Below, in pieces: positions 411-35,443 of a stretch of DNA of 64,000 bases. Made by a program: the position numbers and the translations under genes. Positions within the stretch are counted from its first letter, which is position 1, and every line of letters starts with the position of its first letter. This DNA comes from Octopus vulgaris (taxonomy: Eukaryota): NCBI GenBank assembly GCA_951406725.2, contig OX597833.1, forward strand, positions 27,094,001-27,158,000, given 5' to 3'. A model generated the notes under the pieces. That model did no database searches, was not told where the DNA came from, and saw nothing but the letters and a program-made list of their open reading frames with translations.

Positions 411-812
411 TAAGAATACCATATTAATATGGCGATAACAATTAATTTCCAGTAAACGCTGCCATAATCTCTTTTATAGAGACTTAGTAATTTTAATATT
501 TCTATTATTGAAAACAAGTGGATGTATTCCACTGAAACTAGGTAAATATAAGCCTTCGAACAGAGACATCAGTGGCGACACCTGCGGGTCTGACTGCGCT
601 ACATTGACAAGGGTCAATACCCCCGAAACGCGTCTGTAGCTGTCGGACTGGCAGTGTGAAGCGGCTGACCTCCCTTGTTCGAAGGTTATAATGGATACAG
701 ATCGTGTATCAATAGCTATCTTGATGGCGGTGGCCTCATGGAGCTGACCATGGCAGCGATTATTCTTATATCTATAAGAATGCCATATTAATATGGCGAT
801 AACAATTAATTT
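411..812 (+). mobile_element. Retrozyme-like non-coding element A: 364-nt unit plus 38-nt terminal direct repeat, carrying a hammerhead
   Basis: 411-448 and 775-812 are a direct repeat (1 mismatch), period 364; HHR at 598-640; extensive hairpins; flanked on both sides by (TA)n. Confidence 0.75.
598..640 (+). ncRNA. Type I minimal hammerhead ribozyme, U3-A8 variant
   Basis: GCTACA-TTGACAA-GGG(loop)CCC-GAAA-CGCG-TC-TGTAGC: 6-bp helix I, helix II, palindromic helix III ACGCGT, GUC cleavage triplet. Confidence 0.8.
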
Positions 813-945
813 ATATATATATATATATATATATTAAATAATAAGGGTGAAGAAGAAAAATTGAATATTAATTTCATTAATATCAATTTAAAACCAGTGG
901 CTTAGCATATTGGAGAATCTGAAGATTCAGAAAAATTATATTACA

Positions 946-1151
946 TACATATAAGATGGGTGGCCACTAAGTAGACATCAATTATGCTAGAGATAGATCC
1001 CGAATTTTTGTATCTTTTCATTTGTCTTGCTCGCTTACGTTCTGGCGTTTGCTGAATGTTCTTGAGAACAATCTTTTCTTAGTGGTCAGACCATATGGAG
1101 TCTACCTCTAGCATAATGGATGTCCACTTAGTGGTCATCCTCTTATATGTA
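946..1151. repeat. Imperfect inverted repeat (~52-bp arms)
   Basis: 946-997 is the reverse complement of 1101-1151 with a few mismatches. Confidence 0.7.
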
Positions 1152-1431
1152 TATATATATATATATATGGATGTATGTATGTATATATGTATGTATGCAT
1201 GTATGTATATATGTATATATGCATGTATGTATGTATATGTATGTATATACATATATATATATGTGTGTGTATATATATATATATATGTGTGTATATATAT
1301 ATATATATATATATATATATATATATATATATATATATATATATAATATATACACACACACACACACACACACACATATATATATATATATATATATAGC
1401 TTATTTTATACTTTGATTATCTCTTAGGTTT

Positions 1432-1877
1432 TACATTTTTTGTCATTACACCGTTGCTATGATGGGGCACCGCCTTCAAAATTATTTAGTCTAATGAATC
1501 TACCCCAGAACTTATTATCTTAAGCATAGTACTTGCTTTATCGATGACTTTTGCCGAACCACTAGGTTACAGGAACGTAAACACATCAATACCGGTTGAC
1601 AAGTGGTGGTGGAGACAAACACAGACACAAAGACATACACACATAGTGTTATATATATATGTATATATATATGTGTGTGTGTGTGTGTGTGTGTGTGTGT
1701 ATATATATATATATATATATATATGATGGGCTTCTTTCAGTTTCCGTCTACCAAAACCACTCACAAGGCTTTGATTAGCTCGAGGCTATAGCAGAAGATA
1801 CATGCCGAAGGTGCCAAGCAGTGGAACTGAACCCGGAACCATGGAGTTGGAAAGCAGGCTTCTTGACACACAACCAA
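1432..1877 (-). mobile_element. Bipartite tRNA-derived SINE with internal microsatellite
   Basis: Reverse complement matches the copy at 39434-39867 (GGTTCCGGGTTCAGTTCCAC head, CCTTGTGAGTGG, GGCGGTGCCCCA tail). Confidence 0.75.
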
Positions 1878-2654
1878 AACTTTTTGACAGGTTGGGTCAA
1901 AAATAAATGTTGACTATTCAATAGTTGTTTAATAAAGTGAAGACATGATTGATAATATTGTACCTCAGACTGGATGAAAATAAGAAATAAATATTGCTGT
2001 TACGAAATCTACTATGCGTTTTTACACAAACTAAACTATCCATTTTGATCGCATTGTAACAAATTATGAAAATTGATTTCTCCATGCTGCAATTATAGCG
2101 GAAAAAAGATTATTATTTTTGTTGATTGGTAATCGTCACGCAGAATTATTCACTGCTATTTCTCGAATGCTGGTGAAATCATCAGAGTGTAAGGATCTCT
2201 ACAAAATACACCAATAGCTACAACATTCACATCCAGCAAGGGTCAACCGAATGGGACTTATTCATATTGGAGAACTGGTCCTGTTCAAAAATGCCCTCAA
2301 AATAACTCTGAAGAAACGAACGAACTCGACTACGAAACACGACTTCATGCTTATTTCACAGAACTCTTTTTGATCCATTACTATTATTGTAAACATCATG
2401 ATAAATTTATGCGGGAGAGAGCCCATGTAAAAATTTCTTAACTCCTGGATTCCAGAATTCTAAATCACTAAATAAGTTTGTTTCATGCTGTCAAAAATGT
2501 GGTAATTACTACGATTAGTTAAATTTATCCTGAGCTGAATTATAATTAACTGCTTTGAAGATAATTATTAAAAAGCAGCTATTTTTGCACCAACTTGATG
2601 TGTGTGTGTGTGTGTGTGTGCATGTGTATGTGTGTGTGTGTATTTGTAACATAT

Positions 2655-32322: not shown

Positions 32323-32538
32323 ATGAGTGTAGTCAGTATGTACAAACTAAATTCCATAAAGACAAAACTCGGGTTACCCCACAAATTTAGCGTTATTAAA
32401 ACTGAAAAAATTTGAGCTATTTCTGTACTCATACCAACCCATGACTTAACCGCGTCTAAACTCATCTATAAATCCCGATGGTTTTTTATTATTGTGTTTC
32501 ACCAAATTTAATTGAGAATAATTTCAAAATCTCAATTA

Positions 32539-32975
32539 TAGGCGTGGTTATGTGGTAAGAAGATTGCATCCCAAGATGGTTCCGGGTTCAGTCCTACTGC
32601 ATGGCACCGTTAGAAAGTATAATCCATAAGGCCCTGAGCCGACCAAAGCCTTCTTAAAGAAGTCTGCCGTATTTGTGAGTGTGTGTGTATGTGTGTGTAT
32701 GTGTGTATGTATGTGTGTTTGTGTGTGTGTGTGTGTGTGTGTGTGTGTGTAAGGAGTTTGTGAGTGTAATTGTGTTTGTGTTTGCCTTGTTCCACCGCTT
32801 GAAAACTTGTGGTGGTTTGTTTACTTCCTCATAACTTAGTGATTCTGAAAAGGAGACCGATAGAATAAGTTCCGGGCTGTAAAAAAAATAAATACGGGGA
32901 TAGATTTGTGCCTCGTCTAAACCCTTTAAGATGGTGCCCCACGTAGGCTGCAATCCAATGACTGAAACAAGTAGC
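32539..32975 (+). mobile_element. Bipartite SINE
   Basis: GGTTCCGGGTTCAGTCC head, internal (GT)n, ATGACTGAAACAAGTA tail. Confidence 0.7.
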
Positions 32976-34167
32976 AGATATTGATATTGTTATATATCTG
33001 CCTCCAAAGAAAAGAAAGATATCGAAGTTATAAGAAAGTAATTCAAAAGGTGTCTCAAAACTTTCCGTACGTCACTGTATGTACGTACAACAATTCGGGA
33101 AGGCGACAGAGTTTGTATAGAGTAATTAGTCCTTTTATTATTTTAAATTGCTAATTATTAGTTCGAGGTTGTACCGCATGATGAAAGAACTTTGTTGCAG
33201 TCTTTGGAGTGTATATTTATTTATTATCCTGTTATTATGTAATAAGCTATAAAATAACCTTCCATTAATTTCCTTTGTTTAGTTCAGTCATTCTTTTATG
33301 TTAAGTTGTTGTCTGTAATTATTAATTATAAGAAAGGATGGAAACGGGAAATATCATATAGATATATTTATTCTTGTTTTAACGATTATACCAGGAAGCC
33401 TTTTATGATGTATAAACATGTGGTGTTCATCCAATAACTAGTAATTGTTTTATATTAATTAGCTAAATTAATAAGAACATTATTTGAAACAGATAGATAG
33501 ATAGATAGATAGATAGATAGATAGATAGATAGATAGATAGATAGATAGATAGATAGATAGATAGATAGATAGATAGATAGATAGATAGATAGATAGATTT
33601 TAAAAACAGATAGAAATATACCATGAAAGAAAGACAGAAATAAGGTTAGAAAGAAAGAAAGAAAGGTGATTATTTGAATGTGATTTTTGTACAATACGAG
33701 GTAAAAAGGGGAAAATGTACGGAATACAGCTGAGTCTGAATTAAGTTTGTTGAGTGCAATACAGAGGGTTTGTTTTAGTTTTACATGTCAATATACAACA
33801 TATTCTGGCACACACGTTTCTGATTCTAAAGAGGCATTCTCTGGTTGATCATGGTGAGTCTTTTAAATAATTATTCAAGAGGAATACACACATACACACA
33901 CATGTATGCACATACTGATATGAATATATGCGTGCGTATATGTATGTTTGTTTTGTGTGTCTGTGTATATATATATATATATGTATATGCATATATATAT
34001 ATATATATATATATATATATATATATATATATATATATATATATATATACACACACACACACATATATATATTGTTGTGCTTCGGGTGGTCATTTTTTTT
34101 TTGCCAAATAAACACACGCAGTGTATTTTTTCACTGTTATTATTATTATTATTATTATTATTATTAT

Positions 34168-34790
34168 TGAGTGAGAGAGTTGCATGCCATCAAAGTGGCA
34201 CGGGGGTAAAATATACGAAGCCCAGTATACCCATCATGACTGCCCGTCTGATAAGGATACACCAGATACATGCATCACAAACATATTTGCGCGACATGGT
34301 GATCTCATATCAAGATAAACAGCACATGACCTTGCAGAAGGGGCCCAGTTAGAATTTACTTTTGATCGAGTAACTGATCCCGCTCAAAAGGTCCCTGAAT
34401 AAGGGTTGCTTAAGGATGTTGAACGAACCATCCATGTTTCCAGAGGTGAATTATTCAAACCCCAAAGAATCCCTCTCAACACATGGCTATGATGCTCCCC
34501 CACTACTTCTGCTTGTGATCAGAGATGCACATATCGTCAGCCACTAAGGGACATACTCAACTGGTTAAGGTCAAACAACTGACAAGCAAATCTGTGGTAT
34601 TGAGCAGAATATTTGCTGTAGCCCATCTGCTATACCAAGACAAAACAATGTACATGATAACACTTCCAATCAGTTAAGATCAGAAGCCATGAGAGCCACT
34701 GCCTGGTATTGCATCAGGGCATTAGTGCATCGACAGGGAATCGAAAACGGGCCGCCTGCATAACAAGCGAGCATTCTACCATTGAACCAT
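34168..34790 (-). mobile_element. tRNA-Gly-headed long SINE (~620 bp), most complete copy
   Basis: Minus 5' end ATGGTTCAATGGTAGAATGCTCGC...GGCCCGTTTTCGATTCCC resembles tRNA-Gly; body repeated at 7698, 8249 and 43307; (AAT)n tail. Confidence 0.7.
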
Positions 34791-34937
34791 TATTATTATT
34801 ATTATTATTATTATTATTATTATTATTATTATTATTATTATTATTATTGTTATTATTATTATGATTATTGTTATTATTATTATTATTGTTATTATTATTA
34901 TTATTATTATGCCTGTTCATTGACCGGAAATCTTCCT

Positions 34938-35443
34938 AGGCGTCGATGCTTCCTAGGGCTATACAGCGGTGGTGTACCCCACTACTGTCACGTTCGTGTT
35001 AGATTGACAGTATACAACCATTCTATCGCCCCACCACCGTACATGTCTCTACGAGAGATTTAGAAATTTAGTATTTCTTATTTTGATAATCAGTGAATAG
35101 ACTTCACTGAATTATAGATATATACAGTACGAAGTCGAGACAAATATCGCCAGCTGACCGGTGTCTGCTACTCTAGGCCAATAAAGGACAATGATCCTGA
35201 AACACGTGTCCCTAGATGCAGCTCCGGCGGCCGGGGGTGTTTGTCTCCCCTTCGTAAATGTATATAAGGACACAGGGAAAATGTGTCAAAGCCATCAGGA
35301 GGCGTCGATGCTTCCTAGGGCTATACAGCGGTGGTGTACCCCCCTACTGTCACGTTCGTGTTAGATTGACAGTATACAGCCATCCTATCGCCCCACCACC
35401 GTATGTGTCTCTACGAGAGATTTAGAAATTTAGTATTTCTTAT
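34938..35443 (+). mobile_element. Retrozyme-like element B: 362-nt unit plus 144-nt direct repeat
   Basis: 34938-35081 repeated at 35300-35443; HHR-shaped motif at 35172-35216; hairpin order shared with 411-812. Confidence 0.72.
35172..35216 (+). ncRNA. Hammerhead fold with mutated core (CCAATAA), probably inactive
   Basis: TCTAGG-CCAATAA-AGGA(CAATGA)TCCT-GAAA-CACGTG-TC-CCTAGA. Confidence 0.6.

Follow-up and report, generated by a model that had tools for sequence, protein, structure and literature searches.

The window analysed here, a 64,000-nt stretch of the Octopus vulgaris genome (contig OX597833.1, positions 27,094,001 to 27,158,000), contains two copies of retrozymes, non-coding units of about 360 bp that each carry a hammerhead ribozyme, and these copies represent two of at least four families, A to D. 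The explanation that best accounts jointly for what was found, and which is regarded as probable, is that the four families are non-coding and non-autonomous, that they are moved by a Penelope-like element (PLE), that each unit holds a promoter of the type used by small nuclear RNA (snRNA) genes, marked by a proximal sequence element (PSE), and that a long interspersed nuclear element (LINE) inserts at the transcription start (+1) of that promoter. This reading is carried by direct observation of the anatomy of the units, the signature left by their copying, the covariation of their paired bases, the upstream motif which they have in common with snRNA genes, and the positions of the insertions.

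Hammerhead units of families A to D

The two window copies contain the following features:

411 to 812, + strand: family A retrozyme copy of 1.1 units (period 364), 5'-truncated, ending at the first alternative 3' end, within a (TA)n run
457 to 503, + strand: the "tail" of A, which separates its two alternative 3' ends, with the GC-stem 3' arm, the TCTCT/AGAGA hairpin and the tract common to B
511 to 526, + strand: probable PSE of A, also the 5' arm of hairpin iii
571 to 585, + strand: predicted transcription start of A (about 571 to 574) and position of Tx1-like insertions in other A copies
598 to 640, + strand: predicted type I hammerhead of A, core UUGACAA (U3-A8 pair), short palindromic stem III, predicted cleavage after 634
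693 to 758, + strand: A hairpin v, the conserved AGC..GG/CC..GCT hairpin and the GC-stem 5' arm
34938 to 35443, + strand: family B retrozyme copy, 5'-truncated, 1.4 units long (period 362), which stops at the second of the alternative 3' ends, before (TA)n
35086 to 35101, + strand: probable PSE of B, TCAGTG at -56
35146 to 35159, + strand: predicted +1 of B and Tx1 target, doubled as a target-site duplication in inserted copies
35172 to 35216, + strand: type I hammerhead of B, core changed at G5 and G8 relative to the family CCGAUGA, cleavage site after 35210

A preliminary description of this DNA had proposed that the two copies share one ordered architecture in spite of strong sequence divergence, and every motif that it quoted was found where it had been placed: a GC-rich stem (arms at 750 and 457 in A, and at 34966 or 35328 and 35032 or 35394 in B), the TCTCT/AGAGA hairpin, an AGTGGA or AGTGAA arm that lies 87 nt before the core in A (core at 604) and 86 nt before it in B (core at 35178), a hammerhead (stem I of A at 598-603/635-640), and hairpin v. 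The periods were reproduced as well, with 37 of 38 positions identical in A and 139 of 144 in B. Since the two copies align collinearly, with 63% identity over 261 nt (E 9e-14), they are homologues and not mere look-alikes. When the units are folded as circles, a check which the description had suggested, their energies fall far below those of shuffled sequences (100 shuffles each), with z of -7.4 for A and -8.0 for B on the + strand and of -6.4 and -5.8 on the - strand.

The claim of two hammerhead units stands to the extent that each copy has a hammerhead, but neither has more than one and the core of the B copy is mutated. Neither copy can therefore yield a monomer by double cleavage, and both are single-hammerhead insertion products. 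The core of the window B copy, CCAATAA, occurs in this copy alone among 47 core-spanning B matches, the family core being CCGATGA or CCGACGA, and because its changes hit G5 and G8 this hammerhead is presumably dead and the copy a decayed one. The different starting points of the two copies, which had been read as circular permutation, are explained by 5' truncation together with two alternative 3' ends, and are not by themselves a sign of a circle.

Searches of the genome (2.8 Gb in 227 contigs) gave 2139 candidate copies of A, 2463 of B, 2460 of C and 3661 of D; exact tract patterns matched 2865 times for A and 1102 times for B, with 0 matches for the reversed controls. Families C and D were met by following LINE-type insertions (their loci lie within L196-L235), and their copies have the same anatomy as those of A and B. 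Likeness between A, B and D is roughly 45-55%, C being closer to D, and across the families units with periods of 354-364 are joined head to tail, in arrays of up to 5. The best 40 of the 2139 A candidates and the best 40 of the 2463 B candidates were scored. The loci analysed, with three duplicates removed, numbered 29 for A and 28 for B, of which 20 and 21, respectively, include an inverted part. Free 3' ends lead into (TA)n in 42 of 51 cases in A and likewise in 42 of 51 in B. They form two groups separated by 53-60 nt (in A, at unit positions 35-38 and 94-99). In A, B and D the distance from the cleavage site downstream to the first end is 176-180 nt; reverse transcription therefore begins within the unit and proceeds over the cleavage site. 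A pair of intact hammerheads spaced by one period is present in 7/29 A loci and 8/28 B loci.

These copies display the features of non-autonomous PLEs, namely partial tandems, 5' truncation, an inverted 5' copy and a tail at one end, a combination of tandem, inversion and tail that is known for PLEs (10.1101/2021.04.23.441226), and the suggestion that they are moved by such an element is thus upheld by their integration signature. Judged by sequence, A to D are at least four recently amplified retrozyme families of a known kind, and their identity as retrozymes or non-autonomous PLEs is held with high confidence. The label "viroid-like", which had also been applied to them, adds nothing to the published retrozyme model: a viroid-type replicon would copy RNA from RNA with no DNA stage and carry ribozymes in both polarities, whereas these families have thousands of copies integrated in DNA, and a scan of both strands of the window copy found a hammerhead on one polarity only. 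Locus L121 belongs to an A-like family. Read sets labelled with four organisms share words with family A (query L063:1200-3500), and the family may occur in related species; the query used for RNA runs, L063, is of an A subfamily 87% like the window copy, which weakens that search, and no RNA source turned up in it.

The putative ribozyme is recognized by its core motif and by covariation, Rfam having given 0 hammerhead matches at its gathering score in the window; the 104 matches with E<=10 that it gave for 4 loci included none. Each unit has the core, GAAA, GUC and stems I-III. Eleven monomers drawn from six subfamilies, which amount to no more than about four independent lineages, were aligned. 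Both partners change in 25 of the 42 pairs, and 95% of the cells are paired compared to 32-49% for slid partners, a score reached by 0 of 500 shuffles. The covarying hammerhead pairs comprise 6/6 in stem I, 3/4 in stem II and the core pair 3-8, which varies among U-A, C-G and U.G. The small number of lineages reduces the weight of this result, as does the derivation of the helices, since the hammerhead stems were set from the known fold and the others by running RNAalifold on this very alignment. Pairing of the GC stem spans the unit junction, and the stem is retained in A, B, C and D although its sequence differs among them; circular folds of 6 representatives give z from -3.7 to -9.1 (30 shuffles each). 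The proposal of retrozyme-type units with conserved structure is in this way supported across several families.

A probable snRNA-type promoter motif and the LINE at its predicted start

In 4 of 7 examined stretches B copies are split at one and the same place by an element of 1.6-1.75 kb, which has a single zinc-knuckle open reading frame (ORF) and a target duplication of 11-17 nt. This ORF is related to ORF1 of a LINE in the window (29% identity, E 1e-37):

15290 to 20579, - strand: full-length Tx1/L1-like LINE (ORF1, APE, reverse transcriptase (RT)), target-site duplication of 16 nt, outside any retrozyme and with no PSE upstream

In its RT the window LINE is about 80% identical to the lineage found at the starts of retrozymes and snRNA genes, of which it is a relative. 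Thirty loci of the ORF1-only element, picked by the element's 5' end with the best 40 of 169 candidates scored, comprise 9 in A, 1 in an A-like family, 11 in B, 4 in C, 3 in D, 1 B-like duplication only and 1 unrelated site. Thus 28 of the 30 stand at the start site of a retrozyme unit; two of these, both in B, were the seeds. Four dispersed A loci (L110, L112, L115 and L119) share a deletion that joins the A unit to the insert, and may be one amplified composite event. In L182, L183 and L185 it is full-length LINEs (ORF1, APE, RT) that stand at the retrozyme start site, flanked to the left and right by retrozyme sequence; contigs from three presumed-RNA runs and one run of undefined kind cover L183, in a form from which ends, joints and usage levels cannot be read. 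The ORF1-only (HAL1-like) 1.6-1.75 kb derivatives in L102-L131 and L170-L195 are often in tandem arrays with the full LINE.

When LINE 3' junctions were surveyed (best 40 of 445 candidates scored, 36 classified), 25 were at a retrozyme-type start, including two identical copies and one duplication only, 5 were at U2 +1, and 6 were elsewhere; four of the five U2 junctions continue into full U2 genes as identified by Rfam. Junction patterns revealed 6 insertions at U2 among 56 exact U2 starts and one true insertion at U1 +1; pattern matches at U4 and at a second U1 were rejected as chance, and at U5 these patterns found no LINE junction. An ORF1-only element was also observed at +1 of a U2 gene in L283. 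With its zinc-knuckle ORF1, APE, L1-type RT, target-site duplication and more than 20% of flanks in the same target, the lineage has the attributes of target-specific Tx1-type elements, for which 20% of flanks is the published threshold (PMC4494074). The Tx1 clade label is taken from Pfam and PDB likeness and from element layout, and look-alike clusters of one element protein are dominated by molluscs.

Upstream DNA was compared because the U2 and U1 insertions sit at +1. An ATCAGT-type motif lies near -59 in 19 of 20 U2 upstream regions, and in the twentieth an ORF1-only element stands at +1. A matrix built from 14 U2 promoters has its best match at the same place in 7/7 U1, 1/3 distinct U4 and 3/5 U5 regions, and in 0/4 U6 upstream regions was there a motif at that distance, these U6 (L308-L311, which have no PSE-like motif at polymerase II (Pol II) spacing) being possible pseudogenes. 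With up to 2 mismatches allowed, TCAGTG is found at -54 to -59 in 4/4 U4 and 4/5 U5 regions. A second matrix, made from 13 U1/U4/U5 sites of which one was mis-picked and with the U2 promoters left out, has its best match at -58 to -60 in 6/6 held-out U2 promoters and, when whole units are scanned, at -56 to -59 from the insertion site in 6/6 retrozyme representatives. The U2 matrix places its best match there in 8 of 10 retrozyme upstream regions; one exception missed by 0.1 bit, and the other, L127, has a different upstream part. In L127 this part, which has no PSE-like motif, is joined to a D-type start.

The motif, which in this genome is located 54-60 nt upstream of U1, U2, U4 and U5 genes, overlaps hairpin iii of the retrozymes, of which it forms the 5' arm. 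That hairpin had been described as an RNA structure, and it can indeed form; its 5' arm never varies, whereas its 3' arm changes register, so that an RNA-only role is less likely and the 5' arm is more likely a DNA promoter element. The motif is a probable PSE on account of its position, the PSE being known at about 60 bp upstream of the start (PMC4494074). A PSE at fixed distance before +1, common to U1, U2, U4 and U5 genes, is a mark of an snRNA-type promoter, and the retrozymes quite likely possess a working promoter of this type.

The inserts themselves also bear on the start site. In a tree of the 30 inserts, target labels are clustered overall, with frequent switches, and inserts that are almost identical occur in B and D, or in A and C. 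Since such inserts occupy different families, the idea that a single ancestral insertion was passively carried along was rejected. A B-type leader follows a D target in L111, a second B-type leader is found in L123, and in L252 a D-type leader follows a U2 target. All of these foreign leaders begin at ATC, the predicted +1, and thereby support a real transcription start there. The 5' leader variant of one insert subfamily is present in 2/44 uninserted B copies. In several of the leader-variant loci the 3' junctions were chosen by pattern, so that the 5' side alone counts.

Whether the LINE is aimed by the promoter complex and not by sequence is a closer question, and the former has a little less than an even chance of being correct. 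The main competing account is that the Tx1 endonuclease reads a loose DNA sequence (roughly TTCATC..ACC(T)GG), that the coincidence with the promoter is secondary, that TCAGTG is kept as an RNA hairpin and that the units are transcribed by read-through; its targeting component would be compatible with the presence of a promoter. Target choice in Tx1 elements is usually credited to the endonuclease (PMC4494074), the targets in B, C, D and U2 all begin with ATC or ATCG, U1 has ACCTGG nearby, and the duplication of the window LINE has ACCG with the PSE absent upstream; U4 and U5 insertions were not found, and hairpin iii can form in all four families. Against this stand the motif at snRNA spacing in every family, where it is the best match in each unit, the contrast between the two arms of hairpin iii, an A target that lacks ATCG, the exact start of the foreign leaders at +1, and the leaders themselves, both the variant shared with uninserted B copies and that of L101, whose 5' leader differs from its 3' duplication. 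This account as a whole is judged less likely than not.

The proposed cycle and a candidate helper

The unit of about 355-364 nt would comprise a PSE-type element, followed at 56-59 nt by a start site, and a type I hammerhead whose cleavage site is 61-65 nt beyond that start. In copies of about 1.8 units or more, SNAPc and Pol II would initiate at +1; two hammerheads would then free a monomer, which, as in published retrozymes, a host ligase would circularize. A PLE endonuclease would nick a (TA)n run, a step whose footprint is visible in the copies, and the PLE RT would prime within the unit, at a point 176-180 nt or 222-237 nt beyond the cleavage site on its 3' side, and by copying across the junction would produce partial tandems, 5' truncations and inversions. 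Because the promoter is inside the unit, long copies would regain it. The Tx1-like LINE and its ORF1-only derivative, which are found inserted at +1 as in U2 and U1, would probably be transcribed from the captured promoter.

Circles are likely to exist in vivo. The alternative is that there is no circle, and that linear uncleaved tandem transcripts or template jumping feed the PLE, the hammerhead trimming 5' ends or being vestigial. Such a route could draw on the fact that coding PLEs, some without hammerheads, also make partial tandems, tails and inversions (10.1101/2021.04.23.441226), that the hammerhead cores are variants, that circles are deduced from DNA, and that the comparison of identity within loci and between them is not decisive for B (0.92-0.99 within loci, compared to a mean of 0.93 and a maximum of 0.98 between them). 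It has difficulty with copies which span the cleavage site and exceed one unit, and with 5' truncation, which would be expected to shrink a linear lineage that has no way to regain length. The stem retained over the unit junction and the covarying hammerhead pairs also argue for circles, which have been demonstrated for the retrozymes of mussel, coral and axolotl (PMC7229834), and the linear route is regarded as improbable.

A candidate type of helper for A to D is present in the window:

21024 to 22640, + strand: coding PLE, 5'-truncated, with the RT end, CxxC linker and GIY-YIG, and its own minimal hammerhead at 22479-22518

The family of this PLE has the same two 3' ends and (TA)n signature as the units, a 45-nt tail, a minimal hammerhead with the U3-A8 pair seen in A, and frames of more than 800 codons elsewhere in the genome. 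No ORF with RT and GIY-YIG is located inside a unit, and 3' untranslated regions (UTRs) of PLEs in all loci show no likeness to A to D, save for an adjacent independent A insertion in L022. A coding partner between same-strand tract pairs 1-4 kb apart was considered and rejected, as these were local duplications (L061, L062, L097) or Tx1 insertions. Another PLE family is represented at 60620-63580 (- strand) of the window. It has an inverted 5' copy, its 3' region contains a 102-bp tandem array (61159-61533), and the hammerhead scan found no hammerhead in it.

It is very improbable that the units are pseudo-long terminal repeats (pLTRs) or 3' ends of an unsampled coding PLE, as the preliminary description had allowed: in Xenopus 24/57 retrozyme families match known transposable elements at their termini, nearly all of them PLEs (10.64898/2026.07.22.740005), and of about 25,000 PLE candidates in the octopus genome 125 were scored, with the best 40 matches per family examined, but head-to-tail joins at a period of 355-364 occur in all families, no PLE frame is joined in sense in 97 family loci or elsewhere in about 1 Mb, the examined pairs have the origins just given, and the 3' UTR of the window PLE has a minimal hammerhead only and no PSE-like motif.

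Several observations tell against the combined interpretation of A to D as PLE-moved retrozymes with a promoter that a LINE exploits. Non-canonical cores predominate (U3-A8 in 53/55 A, C4 in 69/75 B, U3.G8 in 28/43 C/D), self-cleavage is a predicted activity, and in the Xenopus study 1 of 9 predicted dimers was cleaved (10.64898/2026.07.22.740005); the U3-A8 core is known from Schistosoma PLE hammerheads (PMC4209133). The six representatives in which the PSE was matched are related and hence not independent, its core is a short one, the +1 of A is uncertain by about 4 nt, and one review states that retrozymes seem to be without promoters (PMC7761336). Off-target LINE copies exist (6/36 and the window copy), none stands at U5 and no true one at U4, and the LINE targets share a weak AT..ACC(T)G likeness. 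The window PLE has no sequence likeness to A to D, and no PLE similar to them in sequence was found among the PLE families examined in the sampled loci. Finally, the cycle is read from DNA, and transcription, double cleavage, ligation, copying by a PLE and promoter capture are inferred. A more ambitious joint reading, in which the retrozymes are self-promoting mimics of snRNA genes with abundant circular RNA and the LINE finds them via the bound snRNA machinery, giving three layers (PLE helper, ribozyme circle and promoter-directed hyperparasite) with the ORF1-only element as a fourth passenger, is put forward tentatively, as a reading less likely than not.

The window is otherwise AT-rich and abundant in microsatellites. 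It contains a 166-bp tandem repeat (53265-53783, 3.1 copies, 93% matches) and a Pif1 helicase 2B domain fragment (54000-54551, + strand) that is probably a Helitron remnant, and about 700 nt to its left there is a 5S rRNA gene or pseudogene (L001:264-379, - strand, 84 bits).

Relation to known systems and significance

The closest counterparts of A to D are the metazoan non-LTR retrozymes of Cervera and de la Pena (2020, PMC7229834), which are likewise non-coding tandem units (170-400 nt) with a type I hammerhead (canonical there), a short palindromic stem III, a highly paired circular fold and co-occurring PLEs. The mussel units in that work are 350-390 nt and those of the octopus about 355-364, and the kind, suggested at first as a candidate new one, was already described. 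The octopus retrozymes, known from DNA, differ from them in being mostly dispersed copies of 1-2 units in (TA)n, in their variant cores and in their candidate internal promoter. The text of that paper that was consulted names no cephalopods, which its supplement may list. In Xenopus, retrozymes have been described as non-autonomous PLEs (10.64898/2026.07.22.740005), and the dependence on PLEs is alike, but there the retrozymes are homologous to pLTRs, whereas in the octopus the link is an integration footprint of tail, inversion and (TA)n; molluscs are not among the sampled groups named in the text of that study. An amphibian precedent for the promoter is newt satellite 2, a hammerhead repeat with a reported snRNA-type Pol II promoter (Coats, Zhang and Epstein 1994, cited in PMC2220036). 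Neptune/Naiad-type PLEs also exhibit partial tandems, an inverted 5' copy, a tail at one end and (TA)n targets (10.1101/2021.04.23.441226, PMC4209133), while A to D encode nothing, have full stem I/II hammerheads and a tail of 45-60 nt.

For the LINE, comparison is with elements that use fixed genomic targets. The site of Keno is internal to U2, about 37 nt into the gene. Keno (U2), Tx1 (Tx1D), Tx1-Mar, Utopia and Dada are APE LINEs in U2 genes or transposons, in tandem (PMC4494074, PMC4640811, PMC3706591), and HAL1 is an ORF1-only derivative of L1, similar to the octopus ORF1-only element (PMC5753468). Unlike these, the octopus lineage uses the +1 of U2, of U1 and of several dissimilar retrozyme families. 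The open literature consulted, most of it judged from listings, gives no account of families A to D or of such LINE targeting, and the elements may already be catalogued in Repbase or Dfam. A built-in snRNA-type promoter motif, combined with a LINE lineage whose insertions stand at the start predicted from this motif and at U1 and U2 starts, was not met described as a single system.

If the reading is correct, a LINE that chooses the transcription starts of genes unlike one another would represent an uncommon, position-specific mode of integration, and the copies map the point at which the PLE RT primes, which in A, B and D keeps a fixed distance of 176-180 nt from the cleavage site. There is the further question of how animal retrozymes reach high RNA levels, for which a review of 2020 (PMC7761336) holds that promoters seem to be absent and the 1994 newt paper reported one of snRNA type. 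The probable PSE of this genome's snRNA genes, present in the units at the corresponding distance, would allow the route of retrozyme transcription to be tested down to exact bases, and its occurrence in four diverged families suggests that the newt promoter may be a general case.

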